Shown: one piece after another, positions 7,666-63,570 of the stretch | Numbering within the stretch: the stretch's first letter is position 1 | Layout of the letters: each line of letters begins with the position of its first letter | Source: Candidatus Helarchaeota archaeon | GTDB taxonomy: Archaea > Asgardarchaeota > Lokiarchaeia > Helarchaeales > RDOG01 | Length of the DNA: 64,000 bases | Direction of reading: 5' to 3' | NCBI GenBank assembly: GCA_019058315.1 | Contig: JAHPZH010000002.1 | Coordinates: 320,001-384,000, forward strand | The notes under the pieces: generated by a model | The model's database searches: none | What the model saw: the letters and a program-made list of their open reading frames with translations, nothing else | What the model was told of the DNA's origin: nothing | Translations under genes and position numbers: made by a program

Positions 7666-8841
7666 TTAAAAATCTATGTCTTTACCATCCCACATGTATT
7701 GAATTATTTTAGCCAAGTCTTCTGTTTCAGGTATTGGTTTATTGGTAGTACTACATGGATCATCATCTGCAAATTTTACAAATTTATCAAAATTAGCTTT
7801 AAAATCTTGTTCACTAATTCCCAAATCTTTAAATGTCATAGGAGCTCCAATTCGTTGATATAAATCTTTAATAGCATTAAGCAATCCTCTATATGCTTTG
7901 TCATCATCTGGTTCCCAAATATCCAGAGCTCGTTGTGCAATTTCTGCCAACCATTTTTTAGCATCAGGTTCCCTATTTGCATTAAATTGAATTATGTAGC
8001 GAAGTGCTAAGCCAACACATTGTCCATGAGGTTTATGAAAGACCGCTCCACACGCATGCCCTATTGAATGCCCAATCCCTGCTTGAGAATTTCCAAATCC
8101 TAATCCCGCAACTGTGGCTGCAATATGAACTTTATTTCGAGCTTTCATATCGTCCCCATTTTTCACAGCTTGTTCTAAATTCTCAAAAATTAATCGAATC
8201 GCATTCAGACAGTGTCCATCTGAAATTTCATTTTTAAAACTCGAAATATAAGCCTCAACTGCATGGGTTAATACATCTAGACCAGTTCCCATAGTGAGTC
8301 TTTGAGGCATATTTTTTGGAAAGACTGGATCTAAAAGTGCTACTATAGGTACTAGGTCTCTAGAACCATATGCAGTTTTTACACCATCCGCATTGGTATC
8401 TGTATAAACAACAGCCCATGTAACATCAGAACCAGTTCCACTTGTAGTAGGAATACAAATATATTCTGCTTTTTTCATATTTAATTTTGCTGTAAAACTA
8501 ATATTTCTTATATCTTTGTCGGGAAATTCGTACAAAAACCAAATACCCTTCCCAGCATCCATAACACTGCCGCCACCTAGCCCAATTATCAAATCAGGTT
8601 CAAATTCTTGGCATATTTTCCCACCTTCCTCTACAACTTTCATAGTGGGATCAGGCATAATTTTATTGAATATTTGAATCTCAGGCTTTGATCTTAAATT
8701 CTTTACGACTAAATCTATAAATCCGAGTTCCTGACAGACTTGATCTGTAACTATTAAGACTTTTTTCGGTTTAATTTGTCCTAAATATTTTAAGGAATTT
8801 GGTCCAAAAACAATTTTCCTAGGTGAAGAATAAAACCACAT
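7666..8841 (-). CDS. Iron-containing alcohol dehydrogenase
   Basis: GGGSVMD, PTTSGTGS, DVLTHAVEAY, GHSIGH, PHG. Confidence 0.93.
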   Translation of the reverse strand: MWFYSSPRKIVFGPNSLKYLGQIKPKKVLIVTDQVCQELGFIDLVVKNLRSKPEIQIFNKIMPDPTMKVVEEGGKICQEFEPDLIIGLGGGSVMDAGKGIWFLYEFPDKDIRNISFTAKLNMKKAEYICIPTTSGTGSDVTWAVVYTDTNADGVKTAYGSRDLVPIVALLDPVFPKNMPQRLTMGTGLDVLTHAVEAYISSFKNEISDGHCLNAIRLIFENLEQAVKNGDDMKARNKVHIAATVAGLGFGNSQAGIGHSIGHACGAVFHKPHGQCVGLALRYIIQFNANREPDAKKWLAEIAQRALDIWEPDDDKAYRGLLNAIKDLYQRIGAPMTFKDLGISEQDFKANFDKFVKFADDDPCSTTNKPIPETEDLAKIIQYMWDGKDIDF

Positions 8842-8876
8842 ATTATCATCTCAAAAAGAAAAAAATAAATATATAT

Positions 8877-9275
8877 TTAAAATTCTACGCCTTCGACTAA
8901 AGTTATCGTATTTACTAATTCTAAAGCAGCTTTAGTTGCTCTCATAATCTTTGACATGTCACCATCAAGCATTAATTCGCCTTCCATCAATGCTCTAATG
9001 GGATCTAGTTCTTTTTTGGCTATTTTTACATAAGTCTCATATGTACCTTCAATTTTAAATTCAGCTTCTTTATTTTCATCTGCTTCTTCTACTCCACGGC
9101 AATTTCCGTGCCAAAGATCAATATACATAAAAAATTTATCGTCACCCATGTCGCATATAAATAGAAAATCGCCTTCCCATGTTGAAGACACCTTTGCATA
9201 TTCTGGATTATTATTTAAAGCAGCACAAAAGGCGTTAGCCCACTCGGGCGTCATATATTTCATTACTATCACCAT
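8877..9275 (-). CDS. SCP2 sterol/lipid-binding domain protein
   Basis: EWANAFCAALN…WEGDF…DLWHG…ELDPIRALMEGELMLDGD. Confidence 0.88.
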   Translation of the reverse strand: MVIVMKYMTPEWANAFCAALNNNPEYAKVSSTWEGDFLFICDMGDDKFFMYIDLWHGNCRGVEEADENKEAEFKIEGTYETYVKIAKKELDPIRALMEGELMLDGDMSKIMRATKAALELVNTITLVEGVEF

Positions 9276-9387
9276 CTATTAGTTTAATTTCTTTTTATTT
9301 TTTAACAATAAAAAGTTTCTTTAAAAAGACAAATCATTCGATTTAAAAAAATTAGAATTAGAAAAATGAAAAGAGATTGAAAAAGTT

Positions 9388-9891
9388 TTATTTTTCATAA
9401 GCTAGTACAGCAAACTCGCCTACAAATTTCTTCTTTTTCTGGTATGCTTCTTCATCTGGTGAGACCACCTTTAATGCTTCATGAGGACACACTTTTACAC
9501 ACTGAGGTTCTTTATAACCTATATCAGTACACATCTCACATTTATGGATATAACCTTGGTCACCTACTCCAATAGCACCAAAAGGACAAACTTTCACGCA
9601 TGTACGGCAGTGAAAACATTTATTGTAATCTATTTTTATAATATGAGTTTTTGGATCTCGAGATATTGCTTCAACAGGACAAGCAGAAATCGGTAAGCAG
9701 TCTTCACACTGCATACAAAAAACTGGATAATTATATTTCCAGCTAAAGTCAATAACTTCAATCCTAGAATTTATCATATTTACGTCCCCTGAATTTACTA
9801 TACTACATGCTAACATACAAAGTTTGCAATCTGTACACTTTTCGGGATCCGCCCAAATTATATTCTTTTCTGCCATTTTTATCCTCCCCAA
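9388..9891 (-). CDS. 4x[4Fe-4S] electron-transfer subunit (AOR partner)
   Basis: CTDCKLCMLAC, CMQC…ACP, CFHCRTCVKVCP, CEMC…CVKVCP; overlaps the aor stop. Confidence 0.9.
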   Translation of the reverse strand: MGRIKMAEKNIIWADPEKCTDCKLCMLACSIVNSGDVNMINSRIEVIDFSWKYNYPVFCMQCEDCLPISACPVEAISRDPKTHIIKIDYNKCFHCRTCVKVCPFGAIGVGDQGYIHKCEMCTDIGYKEPQCVKVCPHEALKVVSPDEEAYQKKKKFVGEFAVLAYEK

Positions 9892-53414: not shown

Positions 53415-54665
53415 GTGTTTTTATTGGCTTGGCATGAAAAGGTAAAAGAAATAAAAGAAAGAAGACTTAAGGAATTGGAAGGTGTTGATATAAAAAGTAT
53501 ACTAGCCGCTGGTGATAAAGAAATTTATAATACAATCCCAGATAGTGTATTTTCCAAACCTTATCTACCTTTATGTACACAAGTTTGGAAATTTTTTAAG
53601 TATATGGATTGGCATTACTTTGATAGTATCTATGCCGATTTTGCAGAAGCATGCCTTGATGAACTAGTTTTGCGGATGGAGGAAGCAATTGAGGTCTCTA
53701 AAGCTTACTCAGAAGGTAAATTGAAAGATCCTAAGAAAACAATATGTTATTGGATTTTACCACCAGTTCTAGTTGTCAGGGCAGATTTAATACAGGGTGC
53801 GATCAGGCTTGTGTATGGAAACTCGGCTGATATAACCTTCATGGGTGTCTCAGACTTCGATAAAGAAGTTCTTTTTGGAATAAACTTTCATTTCGAAAAT
53901 GGGCTTGCAACAAACTATTGGTATATGAAACCTGGTGATGAATTTCTCGATAAACGGCATATGAAACTGGGAACTAAACTTAAAGATTTGCCAAAAGAAA
54001 TACCCGACTTTCATGAAGCAGCAGGTAAAATCCGTGATATTTTATTAGATGTAAGAAATATTCAAGATCCTAATCATGCTCAATCTGCATACAATGTATG
54101 TTTATTTTTAATGTCAGCAGGTCCAAATAATGGTGTTTTTGTAAGTAATTTCGATGAATACAGCTTCATGTGGGAGGGAATTAACAGTTATAAATTGAAT
54201 GAGGAATGTAAAACTGACATTTTAAAAGACACTATCCAATTTTATGAGCCATGGCCACCAATTTTCCTTCAGCTTACCCGTTTAAAAAGAGATCTCTGGA
54301 TAAAACGGATTTCAGGTCTTCTAATTGACAAACAACTCTATTGTCAATACGTATTGAACAAGAAACTCTTTGATATTTTACCAGTAAAAGAAGTACTTGA
54401 AAAAGATTGGGAAGAAGGTGTTCCTACTCCCGCTCAAACTATTGCCCATGAATTCTCAGATTATAAAAATTGGCGATTTGGTTATAAATTACCAGAAGGA
54501 CCTCGTATTCACTATGAAGATTTCGGTTTATCTCTTAAAGAAGCTATGGGAGGTTTTTTAACAGATATAACTTGGCAAACTGAACCACCCTTTACAAGAG
54601 ATAATTTAATTTCCATTGGTCATGGATTAAATACAAAAATTATAAAAAAGGATGAAGAGACTTAA
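53415..54665 (+). CDS. Uncharacterised soluble protein, paralogue A (probable start TTG 53424)
   Basis: Aligns end to end with 54918..56084; no family recognised. Confidence 0.85.
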   Translation: MFLLAWHEKVKEIKERRLKELEGVDIKSILAAGDKEIYNTIPDSVFSKPYLPLCTQVWKFFKYMDWHYFDSIYADFAEACLDELVLRMEEAIEVSKAYSEGKLKDPKKTICYWILPPVLVVRADLIQGAIRLVYGNSADITFMGVSDFDKEVLFGINFHFENGLATNYWYMKPGDEFLDKRHMKLGTKLKDLPKEIPDFHEAAGKIRDILLDVRNIQDPNHAQSAYNVCLFLMSAGPNNGVFVSNFDEYSFMWEGINSYKLNEECKTDILKDTIQFYEPWPPIFLQLTRLKRDLWIKRISGLLIDKQLYCQYVLNKKLFDILPVKEVLEKDWEEGVPTPAQTIAHEFSDYKNWRFGYKLPEGPRIHYEDFGLSLKEAMGGFLTDITWQTEPPFTRDNLISIGHGLNTKIIKKDEET

Positions 54666-54917: not shown

Positions 54918-56084
54918 TTGACTCATACTTATGGAGAGATACCAGATGACGTTGTGACGAAACGTTTCGTTCCCTTGGCAGAAAATTTATATTCATTATT
55001 TCAGGAACTAGGTTGGGATTATTTCTATGAAGAATTTACAGATAAAGGCACTCAATTTTTCGAGAAAGTCCCAGATTTTTTAAGTGATAAATTTCAAAGG
55101 GCAGTAACGACAGCTAAAAAGGTTATAGACGGATCAATACCAACACCTGAGAATGTATTTACAACATTCTTCTTTCCCCCTGTGTTATATGTACGAACTG
55201 ATCTACAAATGGGCAGTACTAAACTTATCTATGGAAATTCGACTGACATTACATTTATTGTCATGAATGATATGAATTATAATTTGGAACTCTTAATAAA
55301 TGCACACATGGAGGATGGAATTCCAGTAGATTATTGGTTCATTAAAAGTGGTGACGAAGTCTTTGATAGAAGACATATGAAGCTTGGTTTTAGACTTGCA
55401 GAGATTCCTTCAAAAACAAAGGACTTTTTCAAAAGTGGGCTTCGTATATTGGATATTTTAAGAGATGTTAGAAATGAACGAAGTCCACAATGGTCCGATT
55501 CTGCATATTCCATGGCAATGAATTGGGCTGGTGGATCAACCAACATGTTCATGGAGTCATCAAGTTACAATGTACTCGGACAACTTTGGGATGGTGTAAA
55601 CGCTAAAAAGGAATATGGTATGCCCGATATGTACTTTGGATACATCCCTTACCCTCCGATATTGAAGATGCTACTATCAATGGGACGTCCAGAGTTCATG
55701 ATAAGAATTGAAGGTTTGCTAAGTCATAATCGCTTATTTATTCATGCATATGAACCTGAACACTATGAATTTATGAAATTCATCTCACCAGAAGCATTAG
55801 AATGGAGCTTTAGGAAAATGAAGGAAGAAGGTGTGCCAACTCCTAGACAGTCTTTAGGTTGCCATGTACCTAAATTAAAAGATAAAAAAACATATAAAAA
55901 TGAAGAGTTCGGATTTGTATACCCCGAAGGAACAAGAATAATGCCTTACGAATGGGGCCTAACAGATGATGAAGCATTCAGCGGAATTTATACCGATATT
56001 TCACATGAAACTCCGTCGGAACCATTTTATGGGAAGGAACATGTAGTCAATATAGGCGTCGGTAAAGACGTGAGACCAATTTAA
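54918..56084 (+). CDS. Uncharacterised soluble protein, paralogue B
   Basis: Shares PPVL.VR.DL..G…L.YGNS.DITF, YW…GDE..D.RHMKLG and EEGVPTP.Q with paralogue A. Confidence 0.85.
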   Translation: MTHTYGEIPDDVVTKRFVPLAENLYSLFQELGWDYFYEEFTDKGTQFFEKVPDFLSDKFQRAVTTAKKVIDGSIPTPENVFTTFFFPPVLYVRTDLQMGSTKLIYGNSTDITFIVMNDMNYNLELLINAHMEDGIPVDYWFIKSGDEVFDRRHMKLGFRLAEIPSKTKDFFKSGLRILDILRDVRNERSPQWSDSAYSMAMNWAGGSTNMFMESSSYNVLGQLWDGVNAKKEYGMPDMYFGYIPYPPILKMLLSMGRPEFMIRIEGLLSHNRLFIHAYEPEHYEFMKFISPEALEWSFRKMKEEGVPTPRQSLGCHVPKLKDKKTYKNEEFGFVYPEGTRIMPYEWGLTDDEAFSGIYTDISHETPSEPFYGKEHVVNIGVGKDVRPI

Positions 56085-58294: not shown

Positions 58295-59896
58295 ATGGAA
58301 GATTTTATTGTTGTTAAAAACCTATTTAAAGAGTTTGAAAGAGGCTCCCCTGCTTATATTGATATAAGCTTTACAATTAAAGAAGGAGCCTCATTTGGTA
58401 TTTTGGGTAAGTCAGGATCTGGAAAAAGTGCTTTAATGCATGCACTTCGTGGCACTCCAGAATATAAACCGACGAAAGGAACAGTCATATATAGGATTTC
58501 TGCATGTCCTAATGATGATTGTCTTTATATCGATTACCCCTCATTAGCAAATTCAAGTTGCCCAAATTGCAACTCAACTTTGGAATTGAAAGAATTCGAT
58601 TTTTGGAAAGAGGCAGAAACTAACTCTCCCCTTTTTCGCGCACTTTATAATCGAATATCAATTATGTTGCAACGTACGTTCGCACTTTACGGAGAACTAC
58701 CCGTATTAGCAAATCTAACTGAGGCTCTAGAAAAAGCAGGCGTTCCTGAAAGACGAAGAGAGGGTAAAGCAGCATTATTACTATCAAAAGTTAATTTAAC
58801 ACACCGTTCAATGCATATTGCCCGTGACTTATCAGGAGGAGAAAAACAACGTGTAGTTTTCGCTATGAGTCTGGCGAAAAATCCACTTCTTTTCCTTGCA
58901 GATGAACCCACTGGAACACTTGATGTAATAACAAGTAAAAAAATCCATAAAACAATGAAGACGGCTGTTAATAAGGATAAACTTACGCTTATTGTGACTT
59001 CACATTGGCCACTTGCCGTTGAAGAATTAACATCAGAAGCAATATTATTAGAGGATGGAAAAATTACGATGCATGCTGATTCTTCTGAAGTGGCTAAGAA
59101 GTTTTTAAGTCAAGTAGAAAAAGTAGAGAGGACAAAAAGAGAGTTTAAAAATAAAATTATGAAAGTTGAGAATTGTATTAAACATTATTACACATTTGAT
59201 AGGGGAATTATTAGAGCTGTAGATGGTGTCTCTCTTGATATTTATGAAAATGAGATTTTTGGGCTTGTTGGTCTTTCAGGTTCTGGAAAAACAACTCTGT
59301 CCCTAATGATGTGTGGTTTGAAAGATATTACAATGGGAAAAATCTGGGTCAATATAGGGGATGAATGGGTCGATATGAGCATCCCAGGTCCATATGAACG
59401 TGGTAGAGCTACAAATTATATGGACATTCTTCACCAAGAATATGCTCTCTATCCTCATTTGATAGTTCTACAAAATCTAACTGGGGCAATAGAATATCCG
59501 ATTCCAGAGGAAATGAAAACCAAAAAAGCTTATGACTCATTAAAGGCAGTAAATTTCACAAATGATGAAATTGAAAATATTCTCTATAAATTTCCAGAAC
59601 AAATTAGTGAAGGAGAACGACACCGAGTTGCCATTTCTCGAATTTTAATAAAAGAACCGAAAATTTTGTTTTTTGATGAGGCAACTGGAACTGCAGACCC
59701 ATTAACTCGGATGGAAATAGTACGTTCAATAAAAAAATCCCGTGATGACCTTAATCAAACATATGTCATAATAAGTCATGATATTGATTTTGTCTTAGCT
59801 GCTTGTGATAGAGCAGCATTAATGAAAGATGGTCACGTTTTAAAAGTTGGAGAACCCGCGGAGATCATAGAATATTTTAAAGAGGTAGAGAAATAA
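58295..59896 (+). CDS. atwA: MCR system component A2 (double ABC ATPase with Zn site)
   Basis: GKSGSGKS, C.{4}C…CPNC, RISIMLQRTFALY, HIARDLSGGEKQR, WVDM..PG…RGRAT. Confidence 0.95.
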   Translation: MEDFIVVKNLFKEFERGSPAYIDISFTIKEGASFGILGKSGSGKSALMHALRGTPEYKPTKGTVIYRISACPNDDCLYIDYPSLANSSCPNCNSTLELKEFDFWKEAETNSPLFRALYNRISIMLQRTFALYGELPVLANLTEALEKAGVPERRREGKAALLLSKVNLTHRSMHIARDLSGGEKQRVVFAMSLAKNPLLFLADEPTGTLDVITSKKIHKTMKTAVNKDKLTLIVTSHWPLAVEELTSEAILLEDGKITMHADSSEVAKKFLSQVEKVERTKREFKNKIMKVENCIKHYYTFDRGIIRAVDGVSLDIYENEIFGLVGLSGSGKTTLSLMMCGLKDITMGKIWVNIGDEWVDMSIPGPYERGRATNYMDILHQEYALYPHLIVLQNLTGAIEYPIPEEMKTKKAYDSLKAVNFTNDEIENILYKFPEQISEGERHRVAISRILIKEPKILFFDEATGTADPLTRMEIVRSIKKSRDDLNQTYVIISHDIDFVLAACDRAALMKDGHVLKVGEPAEIIEYFKEVEK

Positions 59897-59897
59897 A

Positions 59898-60395
59898 ATG
59901 AAAGATTTAGATTCAGAACTGGAATATGAGTATAAAGAACCTTCAGGAAAATGGTGGGAAGAACTCGAATGGATTTTTCCTCCAGAAGAAGACCGAGAAC
60001 CCACATGTTATGAAATGGTTCAGAGTTTTATTATAAATAAAGTTGTTCCTTGTGCTAAGTGTGTGGAATTATCGGGACGGTTTTTACCTCGTGTAATTAC
60101 CATTGAAGCTGAACACCCGATTCGAGGAAATGAGTACTCACGAATAATTATAAGTCCAGTCGATGTAGCAGACGGAGCTCCAACAGTAGAACCCGACCTC
60201 TTAATCCATATTAAATATTACGACTTGTTAAGAGTATTAGATGGAGAATTAGATATAATGAAACCATTATTTTTTGGAGAAGGCTGGTTAATCGGTAATA
60301 CAACAACTGGTTTTGATTTGAAAGATTTAGTCGATGTAGCAAATGGAAAAGAATTAGTTGAGAGACCTAAAGCTTGGCCAATAGGTCACCCATAG
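59898..60395 (+). CDS. SCP2-like (sterol/lipid carrier) domain protein inside the ACR operon
   Basis: V.DG…EPDLLIHIKYYDLLRVLDGELDIMKPLFFGEGWLIGN matches the SCP2 C-terminal pattern also seen at 8877..9275. Confidence 0.62.
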   Translation: MKDLDSELEYEYKEPSGKWWEELEWIFPPEEDREPTCYEMVQSFIINKVVPCAKCVELSGRFLPRVITIEAEHPIRGNEYSRIIISPVDVADGAPTVEPDLLIHIKYYDLLRVLDGELDIMKPLFFGEGWLIGNTTTGFDLKDLVDVANGKELVERPKAWPIGHP

Positions 60396-60406: not shown

Positions 60407-61801
60407 ATGATTAAAGATAAAGTTGACGTTTATAATGATGAGGGTGAATGCATAGGAGAAGATTTACCCATAAAAGCATTCTCTCCCTTATATAATCCGT
60501 ATATGGTAAAAGTTTATAATATGATCAAGAGAACCGCATTTATTTCACTAGAAAAATTAGAACAAAATATACGTAAAGGTCGTTTTGGTGAAATGACAAC
60601 CTTACGTCAGGACGAAATACAGATGCCTCAATTTGAACGGAAATGGAAGCTTGTTGATATGGGGCCTGAAATTGCGGAAAAAATGAATAAAATCATTTCT
60701 ATGGACGAAGGATTTAATGGTAAGGATGATGGTTCGAATGTAGATCTGATAGCGGGTGGTAAAATGCTAAGAGTATCCTTACCACAAAGAAGAATAGATA
60801 TTGCAGCTTCCATTGCCCCACTTTATACAATAACTGGGACTGCACTCGCTCAATCTCTTATTGATCTTCTTGATTTAAACCCAATGAATGATATTGATGG
60901 TTGTAATATAGTAAAAACGGCAATTTTTGGTCGTTTTCCACAAACCAGAGAATTTGGATCTTCATGTCCTATTTTTGCTTTTTGTAAACCTCCTCAATTG
61001 GAAGAAGGCATAGGAACTCTGTTCCGTGGTCTCATGATAAACCATATAGTTGCTTTGTCCAATTTTCGGACTTTCGATGCAGTAGCATTAGCAACTTTAT
61101 TAGAACAAGCAGGACAAACAGAGATGGGAAATGCTATAGGGTGGTATGAGCGCTATAATTTATTGACAACCGCATATCAAGGATTTAATGGAAATAACTT
61201 AGTGTTAGATTTAATTAAAGAATACGGTACTGATGGGACAGTTAGTGATGTTGTACATGGTCTAATTGAAAGATCTTTAAATGATGGGGTTATATATCCT
61301 AAAGGAGATAAATTCCCACACACTCAACCTTCTGGATATAAAATTTATTCAACTAAAGATTATCCGCTTTGGAATGCATATTCATGTGCTGGGTTGTTAG
61401 CTGCTGTTTGTGTAAATGTAGGTGCATCTCGTGCTGCACAAGGTTGTGGCGCAGTAATGTCTAGTTTTAGTGATATTCTTTCATTTGAAACTGGGGGTCT
61501 TCCAGATCCAGATGCTGGAAGGATTTTTGGGACTGCACTCGGTTTTACATTTTATACACATTCAATTTATGGTGGGGCTGGACCTGGGGCTTTTACGATG
61601 GACCATGTTATAACTCGCCATACTAGTGGCTTTTTTACACCATGTGTTGCTGCAGCGATGTGTCTAGATGCAGGAACCCAAATCTTTACTCCAAAATTGA
61701 CTTCTGGAAATTATTTTACGCTTCGAAAAGAAATACCACTGCTCACTGATGTTGTTGTTAAGACCACTGAGGCTGCAAAGGAGATAAAAAATAAATTTTA
61801 A
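60407..61801 (+). CDS. mcrB: Alkyl/methyl-coenzyme M reductase beta subunit
   Basis: DKVDVY, SPLYNP, KRT, EMGNAIG.YER, AYQG.N.NNLV, WNAY, HSIYGGAGPG, HVITRH, LDAGTQ; start ATG 60407 after AGGAG. Confidence 0.97.
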   Translation: MIKDKVDVYNDEGECIGEDLPIKAFSPLYNPYMVKVYNMIKRTAFISLEKLEQNIRKGRFGEMTTLRQDEIQMPQFERKWKLVDMGPEIAEKMNKIISMDEGFNGKDDGSNVDLIAGGKMLRVSLPQRRIDIAASIAPLYTITGTALAQSLIDLLDLNPMNDIDGCNIVKTAIFGRFPQTREFGSSCPIFAFCKPPQLEEGIGTLFRGLMINHIVALSNFRTFDAVALATLLEQAGQTEMGNAIGWYERYNLLTTAYQGFNGNNLVLDLIKEYGTDGTVSDVVHGLIERSLNDGVIYPKGDKFPHTQPSGYKIYSTKDYPLWNAYSCAGLLAAVCVNVGASRAAQGCGAVMSSFSDILSFETGGLPDPDAGRIFGTALGFTFYTHSIYGGAGPGAFTMDHVITRHTSGFFTPCVAAAMCLDAGTQIFTPKLTSGNYFTLRKEIPLLTDVVVKTTEAAKEIKNKF

Positions 61802-61811
61802 GGTGAAAATT

Positions 61812-62687
61812 ATGGAAGAAGATGTTTTTGCAGTTGCAGATATTGAAAAATTCAAGAGAAAGAAAAAGAAAGTAGAAAGAAAAGAAGTAGAGAAAAAAGT
61901 TGAAGTTATAGAGGGTAAATATGAACCTCAATTTTACCCAGGACAAGGTCCGGTATCGGAAAGAAGGCGAAAATTATTAAATAAAAATAAAAAGTTATTG
62001 AAATTACGAAGTATTCCAGATGATGATGTGGTTAAATTACTCGGACATCGTCTACCGGGCAGTTTATATCGTAGTATTCATCCCCCTCTAGACGAATTAA
62101 TCCAAGAATATGATCCTATTAAAATGCTTGTAAAACCTACCCCAGGAGCACGTGCAGGTGATCGTGTCCGCTTTGTCCAATTCACTGATAGTTTTTGGAG
62201 ACCTCCTTTTGCCCCTTGGTTAAGAGCAAGGTATTATTTCAATCGTCTACGAGGTGTGGATACCGTTATTTACTCGGGACGTGAAATTTTAGAAATGAGG
62301 GAACGTGATCTAGAGGCAGCCACAAAAATACTAATTGAAACAGAACTTTTCGATCCAGCTAGAACAGCTCTTAGAGGAATTACTGTTCATGGTAGTTCAT
62401 TGAGATTAGATACTGATGGATTAATGTTTGACGCTCGACGTCGATATGTATTGGATAAAGACGTTAATGAAGTTGTTTATATTAAAGATATGCATGCAAA
62501 GATGTTAGATAAACCTATCCCGGTAGGAAGACCTTTCAACGAAGATGAATTAGTTGAGTTTGACGTGACTTATAGATGGGATGCTTCGATGTATAAATCA
62601 CGTACTGAAATTTTAACAGTAATTAATAGAATTGCAAAAGGTAGATTATTAGCAGGTTTTAGACCAGAATTAGTAAATGATTTTTAA
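61812..62687 (+). CDS. mcrG: Alkyl/methyl-coenzyme M reductase gamma subunit with charged N-terminal extension
   Basis: YEPQFYPG, LGHR.PG, HPPL, GDRVR.VQF.DS, RGVD, SGR, RG.TVHG.SLRLD; ATG 61812 after AGGTGA (the ORF track uses GTG 61803). Confidence 0.96.
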   Translation: MEEDVFAVADIEKFKRKKKKVERKEVEKKVEVIEGKYEPQFYPGQGPVSERRRKLLNKNKKLLKLRSIPDDDVVKLLGHRLPGSLYRSIHPPLDELIQEYDPIKMLVKPTPGARAGDRVRFVQFTDSFWRPPFAPWLRARYYFNRLRGVDTVIYSGREILEMRERDLEAATKILIETELFDPARTALRGITVHGSSLRLDTDGLMFDARRRYVLDKDVNEVVYIKDMHAKMLDKPIPVGRPFNEDELVEFDVTYRWDASMYKSRTEILTVINRIAKGRLLAGFRPELVNDF

Positions 62688-62706: not shown

Positions 62707-63570
62707 ATGACAGAAGAAATTGATGTTGAATTAACAGAAAAAATAAAAGAATTATGCCTGAAAGCAGGTGCAGACAAAGTAGGAATTGCAGATGCTGATA
62801 AAGCGGTAGGATCATCACAAGGTCATGCAAATCCAAGGGATATTCTCCCTAATGCGCGGTCAATAATTGTTTTAGCTTCAAAAATCCCCGATAGTGCCAT
62901 CGAATGTAAACATTCTGATGAATTAATCCACGCAAACTTTGTTGCCGTGCAACAAGCAATGAATATGGAACTTGTAAGAATAGGTTATAAACTCTCTCGA
63001 TTTTTAGAAAAATTAGGATATGATTCTATTCCAATTGCACCAGATATTCCTCGAGAAGAAAGTAGGAATATTTGGGTAGGAACTATATCTCATAAATATG
63101 TGGCACAACTCGCTGGTTTAGGTGAAATTGGTCTTGCGAACCTATTTCTTACACCTGAATGGGGTCCAAGAGTCAATTTATGTTGTATACTTACTGATGC
63201 ACCCCTACAACCAGATGGACCTAAATTAGTTGATAAAGTTTGTACAAAATGTAATAAATGTATAGAAGCATGTCCAACTAGAGCCTTAACTTCGAATAAT
63301 TATCCACCATTTAACTTCAATTTAAATCGGTGTCTATGGGCTACTCTTGGATTTTATCGGTTAACAAAAGTTGAGGAACCACCCGAAGACTGGATAGATG
63401 CAAAACCAAGCGCAAATATTGTTCTTCCCAAATATGAGGAAAAATACCCACAAATTCGCACTTTTGAAAATTGGGCTTCTAGATTGGGCGACTTTCCCCA
63501 ATGTATTGCATGTATGGCTGCATGTCCAATAGGAAAGGAGACTCATCAAAAAAGAATTGAGGGCGAATAA
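62707..63570 (+). CDS. Epoxyqueuosine reductase/reductive dehalogenase-like cobalamin- and 2x[4Fe-4S]-binding protein
   Basis: GADKVGIA, SHKYVAQLAGLGEIG, TPEWGPRV…LTDA, CTKCNKCIEACP, C…CIACMAACP. Confidence 0.88.
   Translation: MTEEIDVELTEKIKELCLKAGADKVGIADADKAVGSSQGHANPRDILPNARSIIVLASKIPDSAIECKHSDELIHANFVAVQQAMNMELVRIGYKLSRFLEKLGYDSIPIAPDIPREESRNIWVGTISHKYVAQLAGLGEIGLANLFLTPEWGPRVNLCCILTDAPLQPDGPKLVDKVCTKCNKCIEACPTRALTSNNYPPFNFNLNRCLWATLGFYRLTKVEEPPEDWIDAKPSANIVLPKYEEKYPQIRTFENWASRLGDFPQCIACMAACPIGKETHQKRIEGE

Follow-up and report, generated by a model that had tools for sequence, protein, structure and literature searches.

A small protein with a predicted SCP2 fold is co-inherited with one clade of alkyl-CoM reductases and is a likely accessory for handling their substrates or products

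The SCP2 fold is well known, as are SCP2 modules that serve enzymes with hydrophobic substrates (UbiJ, SCPx, MFE-2, and the alkyl sulfatases). The protein analyzed here, a 165-amino acid chain that we call S, is encoded among the genes of an alkyl-CoM reductase (ACR). The SCP2/non-specific lipid-transfer proteins (PF02036; 1c44, 4uei, 1ikt, 4jgx, and 1pz4) have a fold in common with the model of S over residues of about 30–150, with Z of 9–10.6 and TM by target of 0.62–0.75, and are related to it by family-level sequence homology; S is likewise small, soluble, and stand-alone. The Trp-rich N-terminal arm and the W-P-x-G-x-P tail, both conserved in S, are not found in SCP2 and S, unlike SCP2, has its gene alongside those of a nickel-F430 enzyme, to which it is predicted to bind.

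UbiJ is the SCP2 accessory of the soluble bacterial ubiquinone-synthesis complex, in which it holds a very hydrophobic substrate. Its SCP2 domain (6h6n/6h6o/6h6p) matches the model of S structurally, with TM by target of 0.70–0.74 and an rmsd of 2.7–3.0 Å, and it provides the closest functional analogy to S. Binding has been demonstrated for UbiJ and is inferred for S. The two proteins have no sequence relationship beyond the fold, and their partner enzymes and ligands differ. The alkyl sulfatases (PF14864; SdsA1 2cfu/2cfz, Pisa1, and YjcS) carry an SCP2-like module on an enzyme for long alkyl chains with a sulfur-oxyanion head, and the alkyl sulfates and sulfonates resemble alkyl-CoM. These enzymes also match the S model structurally; when sequences were compared, PF14864 gave weak matches in 5 of 16 members of the S family (best E 0.0079, below the curated cut-off) and none for S itself. 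The alkyl sulfatase domain is fused to a metallo-β-lactamase-type hydrolase, whereas S is a separate chain.

McrD and McrC are, like S, small proteins of mcr operons that are expected to bind the reductase, but they have a different fold and no sequence match to S. The original prediction that S does not resemble McrC or McrD agrees with its lack of a match to PF02505 or PF04609. The same genome has true genes for both at other loci, with scores of 76 bits for mcrD and 316 bits for mcrC, and we therefore ruled out S as a replacement for either one.

The access of alkanes to ACRs has been called an open riddle in a structural review of these enzymes, which names "hydrocarbon-carrier proteins" as a possibility and does not mention S (Lemaire and Wagner 2022, PMC9118554). 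The route by which the alkane reaches the buried nickel cofactor and the exit of alkyl-CoM are both acknowledged questions (PMC9118554), for which S offers a concrete candidate with accessions.

The window (the whole stretch of DNA that was analyzed, 64,000 nucleotides) contains the gene order acrA-atwA-S-acrB-acrG, as assigned from the open reading frames and Pfam matches (Table 1), with a gene for a reductive-dehalogenase/QueG-like Fe-S protein (Pfam) 3' of acrG. The reported spacing of the 165-aa ORF, 1 nt from atwA and 11 nt from acrB, was confirmed by the atwA stop at 59896 and the acrB ATG at 60407, which is the most plausible acrB start and has a GGAGAG ribosome-binding site upstream. 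S is acidic (pI 4.5), has no hydrophobic leader, and is a stand-alone chain. With atwA placed between acrA and S, the window departs from the usual arrangement. Homologs of atwA adjoin S or acrA at many other loci, and they lie directly beside S in the window and at loci L001, L058, L103, L028, L031, L053, and L057.

Table 1. Positions in the window of the S gene, its predicted parts, and the neighboring genes
Feature	Position	Strand	Basis
S gene (165-aa ACR-associated protein, predicted SCP2 fold)	59898-60395	+	ORF, ATG to TAG, translation
S, N-terminal extension, residues 1-35, acidic, Trp-rich, ending at E34-P35	59898-60002	+	Alignment, AF2 model
S, predicted SCP2-fold core, residues about 36-150 (about 30-150 in other delimitations)	60003-60347	+	Model, VIA-align, Foldseek, profile
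S, C-terminal tail, residues 151-165, R156-P-x-x-W160-P-x-G163-H-P165	60348-60392	+	Alignment, tail listing
acrA, McrA homolog, 599 aa	56414-58213	+	Pfam MCR_alpha_N 3.9e-101; tree places it in the S clade
atwA, component A2-type double ABC ATPase	58295-59896	+	Pfam ABC_tran, two stretches, 2.3e-46
acrB	60407-61801	+	Pfam MCR_beta 3.4e-86 and MCR_beta_N
acrG	61803-62687	+	Pfam MCR_gamma 4e-91
X paralogs, two genes, ~400-aa family	53415-54665, 54918-56084	+	No Pfam or NCBIfam match

When the S sequence was analyzed alone, it had no Pfam or NCBIfam match (0 Pfam families at E ≤ 1). The original prediction had drawn the SCP2 assignment from a likeness between S and a protein encoded at 8877–9275 on the minus strand of the window, which is a genuine SCP2 protein (Pfam SCP2, 2.2e-10). 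This likeness did not appear when the two proteins were compared pairwise, as BLASTP gave no alignment at E ≤ 100, but it did emerge through the family profile, for which hhalign reported an E of 0.011 in the same register as had been proposed. A profile built from 16 diverse members of the S family matched solved SCP2 proteins 4uei (E 6.9e-6) and 1c44 (E 5e-5) and nothing unrelated, with the match falling on the segment that the original prediction had aligned, and Pfam SCP2 (PF02036) was matched individually by 8 of the 16 members (best E 2.3e-8). By these family and profile comparisons, rather than by a Pfam match of its own, S is homologous to the SCP2 sterol-binding domain superfamily.

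An AF2 model of S built from 38 sequences of all lineages had a pLDDT of 92.3 and a pTM of 0.88; it replaced an earlier model from 14 close relatives (pLDDT 64.6), which had given marginal fold matches. The elements of the model run helix-helix, four strands, two helices, strand, helix, which is the SCP2 order. When the model was searched with Foldseek, there were 44 PDB matches at E ≤ 1e-3 (best 4.2e-7), and the top 47 were all of SCP2 type. The top 11 matches found by VIA-align were also all of SCP2 type, with a Z of 10.6 and an rmsd of 2.7 Å over 110 residues for human SCP2 (8af2_A). The SCP2 fold, on which the original prediction had staked itself, thus holds by profile, AF2 model, Foldseek, and VIA-align, and S is predicted to adopt it.

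The structural matches to SCP2 start near residue 30–35, and the residues before this point lie outside the canonical SCP2 domain. The acidic, Trp-rich N terminus that had been described for S is real and conserved (W19, W20, W25, E34, and P35): W19, E34, and P35 are invariant in the 38 aligned sequences, and the extension is modeled at a pLDDT of about 95 from residue 11 onward. A second element, which had been overlooked in the original prediction, is a strictly C-terminal R-P-x-x-W-P-x-G-x-P motif that is present in 29 of the 38 aligned members and is missing from one subfamily, that of the tar-biofilm Halobacteriota MAGs. The S protein of the window has all of the residues W19, W20, W25, E34, P35, R156, W160, P161, G163, and P165. 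Judging from the alignments, the N-terminal arm and the C-terminal tail are family-specific additions to SCP2. Among the residues conserved most strongly in the family are E34, P35, H73, P74, E79, P87, P95, E98, D100, N134, R156, W160, G163, and P165. One subfamily of S is rich in Met and Gly, with up to 12% Met and flexible hydrophobic insertions. The CAKC motif that had been singled out as a feature of S did not survive the comparison, as its first Cys is variable even in close Helarchaeales relatives and its second is lost in the broader family; because the cysteines are not conserved, we dropped the idea that they form a metal or redox site.

When 1.84 billion representative proteins were searched exhaustively with a profile, the S family came to only 19 clusters, and an mcr-type locus is the setting of every cluster member with a readable context. 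The homologs of S comprise 13 close and about 40 distant proteins, all of them intact, and across more than seven lineages the family identity is only 25–45% with the SCP2 core complete. In searches with a family HMM, S scored 237 bits; no member fell below 149 bits, and no other SCP2 protein from those genomes exceeded 32 bits.

With their names taken from exact sequences or contigs, the carriers of S are Ca. Syntrophoarchaeum butanivorans (OFV67020.1, SBU_000313), Ca. Alkanophaga liquidiphilum and Ca. A. volatiphilum (MDF2955780.1 and MDF2956534.1), Ca. Methanoliparum (RZN65549.1 and BDC35353.1), Ca. Methanolliviera (VUT24755.1), Bathyarchaeota BA2 (KPV61790.1), three Hadarchaeales MAGs (one of which has two tandem A-S sets), Archaeoglobi JdFR-42 and an Archaeoglobaceae MAG, and the Helarchaeota. 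Every cultured archaeon of this kind that was checked (Syntrophoarchaeum, Alkanophaga, and Methanoliparum) has S; in Methanoliparum thermophilum, the S gene lies away from the acr operon. A 176-aa ORF that follows a 733-aa McrA gene in another genome (G479) was considered as a further S protein and rejected, since the S profile matched it by hhalign at an E of only 0.28.

The genome from which the window comes (5.8 Mb in 12 contigs) carries mcrA three times and S, in full length, also three times, with one S at each acr locus; the three loci differ in gene order: A-atwA-S-B-G in the window, X-X-B-G-A-S at the second, and B-G, a divergent A, and then S at the third. The same genome encodes other stand-alone SCP2 proteins with ordinary Pfam matches, which are the protein at 8877–9275 in the window and those at loci L011 and L012. 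When 400 Asgard genomes were searched, S and mcrA were found together in 7, which all belong to one order, and the remaining 393 had neither. In the class Syntropharchaeia, mcrA is present in 67 of 79 genomes and S in only 7.

To relate S to the reductase, 48 McrA sequences from these genomes were placed in a maximum-likelihood tree, and adjacency was defined as an S gene within 2.5 kb. A split with 100/100 support placed all 21 S-adjacent McrA proteins in one clade of 29, which contains the window AcrA and whose lineages are the Helarchaeales, Bathyarchaeota BA2, Hadarchaeales, Archaeoglobi, Methanoliparia, Syntrophoarchaeum, and Alkanophaga. This clade, which we call the S clade, includes the most expressed Acr of the butane oxidizer Syntrophoarchaeum, the dominant Acr of Alkanophaga, which oxidizes C5–C14 alkanes, and the long-chain Acr of Methanoliparia. 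The eight S-clade McrA proteins that have no S nearby consist of two Alkanophaga acrA products encoded apart from acrBG-S, one with the same arrangement in genome G477, two at contig ends, two with X and atwA between A and S, and one from a fragmented assembly with unpaired S copies. Across the split, S was near 0 of the 19 McrA proteins, which are ANME-1 MCR and the 554–581-residue Acr paralogs of Syntrophoarchaeum and Alkanophaga.

Searches of other reductase loci gave the same picture. None of the 53 canonical methanogen MCR loci searched, each with 6-kb flanks, carried S, and there was no S match at E ≤ 1e-3 in five Methanosarcinales genomes with an McrA of the ethyl-CoM-reductase type, including Ethanoperedens. 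For one of these McrA proteins, the match to PDB 7B1S chain A (Ca. Ethanoperedens thermophilum) is full-length (1406.7 bits, E 0). S stays beside acrA or acrBG through at least five gene orders in seven lineages, and its copy number tracks the number of S-clade acr loci. The presence of S in other acr operons, which had been put forward as a check on its role, was seen within a single clade. These data demonstrate an exclusive linkage of S to one ACR clade. The claim that S is dedicated to ACR stands, in that S is found with one AcrA clade in seven lineages and is absent elsewhere, and a complex model supports its binding to AcrA.

Other features of these loci also tie S to AcrA. In 27 acrA-S pairs, S starts a median of about 9 nt after the acrA stop, and most values fell between −4 and +14 nt. 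The pairwise distances among AcrA proteins correlate with those among the S proteins (Mantel r 0.75, a value reached by 0 of 2000 permutations), and because kin are not independent, we take this correlation to reflect co-inheritance and not contact. The correlation is as would be expected if S has been part of the module since the clade arose. The S family is co-inherited with one alkyl-CoM reductase clade. The second family found at these loci, X, showed a similar distribution: phmmer found X homologs next to acrA genes of the S clade in Helarchaeales, BA2, Hadarchaeales, Archaeoglobi, Syntrophoarchaeum, and Alkanophaga and at 0 of 53 canonical loci. A language-model atlas search with X gave no usable lead (recognition 1030).

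The AcrA proteins of the S clade have an N-terminal extension (residues 4–31 in the window protein), carry an insertion at 329–346, and lack one residue at canonical position 244. In published models of the Syntrophoarchaeum, Methanoliparia, and Helarchaeota enzymes, a one-residue deletion opens a cleft of 15–17 Å from the CoM site to solvent (Lemaire and Wagner 2022, PMC9118554). The deletion at canonical position 244 is this open-cleft deletion, and S adjoins the α subunits that were modeled in that study (OFV67021.1 and VUT24756.1). The first of these, OFV67021.1, is the α subunit of the most expressed MCR of S. butanivorans according to the review. In S. butanivorans, S directly follows a 623-residue McrA on a 353,645-bp contig, and the consecutive accessions suggest that OFV67020.1 and OFV67021.1 are neighbors.

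In Alkanophaga, the S gene follows an acrBG pair that has no acrA of its own, and this is the only pair that is free to partner the separate "cluster 3" acrA. The cluster 3 acrA is among the most expressed genes on all of the alkanes tested, from C5 to C14 (Zehnle 2023, PMC10322722). The operon table of that study ends one gene before S, S is unannotated in the source data of its Extended Data Fig. 3, and the S gene is not listed in its text supplements (PMC10322722).

A direct interaction between S and AcrA was predicted by modeling. With 28 aligned AcrA sequences and 38 aligned S sequences, the complex prediction scored 0.64 (0.65, 0.51, and 0.64 in individual runs), compared with 0.00 for the best of three controls. 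In calibration, 58 of 80 solved complexes scored this high, as did 2 of 110 mismatched pairs; these counts serve as a rough guide only, because our own alignments were used for the AcrA-S pair. A solved complex resembling AcrA-S is absent from the PDB, in which the best matches to AcrA are canonical MCRs and those to S are only distant SCP2 proteins, and the PDB copy searched has no structure of an S-clade ACR. Since neither the S-clade ACR nor S has a close PDB relative, the predicted binding cannot derive from a known complex structure.

In the best run, a loop and strand of S (residues 119–135) and its C-terminal tail touch AcrA at residues 24–35 and 398–433. The partner was predicted with a pLDDT of at least 82, and the contact agreement between runs was at least 0%. 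On S, the interface of the best run is not better conserved than the rest of the protein (mean entropy 1.90 compared with 1.87), and on the AcrA side conservation is below average (2.04 compared with 1.47). The complex was modeled with AcrA alone, without the β and γ subunits of the α2β2γ2 enzyme, and the contact surface may be buried once the enzyme is assembled. From the modeling, S is predicted to bind AcrA in a pose that is unreliable, because the runs have no common contacts and the interface is not enriched in conservation.

In the mechanism that we propose, S would be co-produced with AcrA, with its start codon usually only a few bases past the acrA stop, and would bind the reductase as an accessory (fourth) component. 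Using the hydrophobic tunnel that is typical of SCP2, it would hold an alkyl chain at the mouth of the enzyme cleft, where it could either feed the alkane in or take over the detergent-like alkyl-CoM, shielding both alkyl-CoM and the active site from water. Acceptance of the product is judged to be at least as likely as feeding of the alkane, because S is structurally akin to the SCP2-like domain of the alkyl sulfatases and because long-chain alkyl-CoM is a surfactant. We infer the hydrophobic cavity of S, its ligand, and the direction of transfer. An ACR-dedicated SCP2 accessory protein with a role in substrate or product handling is the likely identity of S, which is the best candidate so far for a protein that handles the oily substrates or products of ACR.

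Taken as a whole, an ACR-dedicated accessory whose SCP2 tunnel holds the alkyl chain at the open cleft is the best explanation of these results, and we give it slightly more than an even chance of being correct. Several findings bear on how it should be read. S is also found with the butane enzyme of Syntrophoarchaeum, for which substrate and product are fairly soluble. A purely solubilizing shuttle therefore cannot account for every occurrence of S, and a role that is independent of chain length, such as cleft capping and water exclusion, may be part of its function. SCP2-like domains can also be purely structural, as in the C-terminal domain of the Eis acetyltransferases, which counts against this explanation, as do the subfamily without the C-terminal tail and the separation of the gene from the acr operon in Methanoliparum thermophilum.

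A related reading, which we offer tentatively and with low confidence, is that S is a stoichiometric fourth subunit that forms a hydrophobic entry/exit chamber over the open cleft and that, with X, allows alkanes from C4 to above C20 to be used and alkyl-CoM to be released. If this were true, an active ACR could not be reconstituted without S, and S would serve as a genomic marker for telling alkane-oxidizing Acr from other divergent Mcr.

The close association with atwA raises the possibility that S is instead a maturation, assembly, or activation factor, which could, for example, hold apo-AcrA or assist in cofactor insertion or in ATP-dependent activation with the A2 ATPase and would not handle substrate or product. 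The gene for this ATPase is directly beside S at many loci, the model has S bound to isolated AcrA on a surface that includes the clade-specific extension (24–35) and helices 398–433, as would suit a chaperone, and a role that is independent of chain length would fit the occurrence of S with the butane enzyme. We consider such a factor unlikely, since the ordinary mcrD and mcrC genes elsewhere in the genome (C11:299259 and C11:401255) leave nothing for S to replace, all of the solved relatives of S bind lipids or belong to lipid-handling enzymes, and the tight coupling of the gene to acrA points to S and AcrA being made in equal amounts, and not to a catalytic helper. In addition, we know of no assembly or redox-activation role for the SCP2 fold.

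The conservation of S can also be read as that of a purely structural fourth subunit, which would stabilize or cap the N-terminal extension of AcrA, its 329–346 insertion, and the open cleft without binding a lipid. Many of the most conserved residues of S are polar residues and prolines, the SCP2 core does not include its conserved arms, AcrA features that are unique to the clade accompany S, and the Eis domain is a precedent for SCP2-like domains with a structural role. A subunit of this kind is in our judgment distinctly improbable, as the full SCP2 core has been kept over more than seven lineages at 25–45% identity and the flexible hydrophobic insertions of the Met- and Gly-rich subfamily suggest contact with a ligand; moreover, capping of the cleft and holding of an alkyl chain are compatible with each other.

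That S is a general cytoplasmic lipid or acyl-CoA carrier whose operon position is incidental would suit the other stand-alone SCP2 proteins of the genome and the use that β-oxidation of alkane-derived acyl-CoA could make of a carrier, but it is scarcely credible in view of the gap in HMM scores between members and other SCP2 proteins, a copy number that follows the S-clade acr loci, an adjacency to acrA or acrBG that is kept through at least five gene orders in seven lineages, and the absence of S from the 393 Asgard genomes without mcrA.

For the accessory that we favor, with its SCP2 tunnel at the open cleft of the reductase, the literature searched contained no paper linking SCP2 to ACR, mcrA, or the carrier organisms and no mention of SBU_000313 or OFV67020. 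The S family is apparently a small, distinct SCP2 family that is tied to an MCR-type enzyme, and the connection is apparently new. Together, the S and X families provide a simple marker by which this ACR clade can be told from methane- and ethane-specific enzymes in metagenomes, those of Asgard archaea included. In existing annotations, a few S proteins are automatically labeled "SCP2 domain-containing," and most are labeled "hypothetical."

In the window, the ACR operon is accompanied by two paralogues of a second family, X, neither of which had a match in Pfam or NCBIfam. Homologues of X (371-524 aa) adjoin acrA genes of the S-clade, the single AcrA clade that contains all 21 acrA genes with a copy of the SCP2-fold gene S within 2.5 kb, in Helarchaeales, BA2, Hadarchaeales, Archaeoglobi, Syntrophoarchaeum, and Alkanophaga, and none of 53 canonical MCR loci contained X. 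Alongside S, X is a signature accessory gene for S-clade ACR. At the other end of the operon, a gene for a QueG-like Fe-S protein lies directly 3' of acrG, and a 286-aa homologue of this protein adjoins acrG on the opposite strand at two other Helarchaeales loci (L001 and L058).

Features at and beyond the window ACR operon, with coordinates
Feature	Location	Strand	Remarks
X paralogue 1	window 53415-54665	+	~400-aa family
X paralogue 2	window 54918-56084	+	~400-aa family
Reductive-dehalogenase/QueG-like Fe-S protein	window 62707-63570	+	TIGR02486 4e-19, under that model's cut-off
Third S copy of the window's genome (G000)	L016 (G000:C11:311000-327000), ORF 8839-9456 within L016		
176-aa ORF	L086:6866-7393 (G479)		directly after 733-aa McrA gene
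Ordinary SCP2 protein, BA2's second	L005:3992-4558 (Bathyarchaeota BA2)		Pfam SCP2 2.1e-6

The linkage of S to acr genes is not absolute within Methanoliparia, because the acr operon of Ca. Methanoliparum thermophilum (L109 and L101; acrB-acrG-acrA-atwA) lacks S, which is found on a different contig, and in Methanolliviera S follows acrA (acrB-acrG-acrA-S). About 1.4 kb separates the third S copy of the window's genome from an acrA that is transcribed divergently, and a gene for a 320-aa Rho_N-domain protein precedes this copy. Translation from the first start codon would give it a long, acidic extension at the N terminus that includes an EYEYEYEY repeat. At the same locus, acrG and acrA are separated by a gene for an 800-aa CoA-disulfide-reductase/rhodanese/TusA fusion.

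The C-terminal tail W-P-x-G-x-P is missing from an S subfamily (L048-L052, L069, L070, and L075-L077) of two Halobacteriota/Methanobacteriota MAGs, G470 and G471, one of which came from a tar biofilm. These proteins have Met- and Gly-rich insertions and tails instead, with Met content reaching 12% and Gly content 15%, and each genome contains 3-5 S copies and as many S-clade acrA genes.

Other SCP2-like genes also occur at mcrA loci. Genome G479 (class Syntropharchaeia) has four mcrA genes and no S; one encodes a very divergent McrA with a long N-terminal extension. For the product of the ORF that follows it, BLASTP gave a 115-residue alignment to the window's canonical SCP2 protein (E 6e-4), and this product matched neither the S profile (E 0.28) nor any Pfam model. 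The ORF may encode an independent, second SCP2-like partner for an Mcr homologue. In BA2, one mcrA sits between two SCP2-fold genes, since the ordinary SCP2 gene occupies the side opposite S.

One public contig (L120, DATKTP010000015.1), deposited as the bacterial 'Candidatus Deferrimicrobium sp.', carries a Helarchaeales-type acrG-acrA-S-atwA cluster; the name in this record probably results from an error in binning or labelling.
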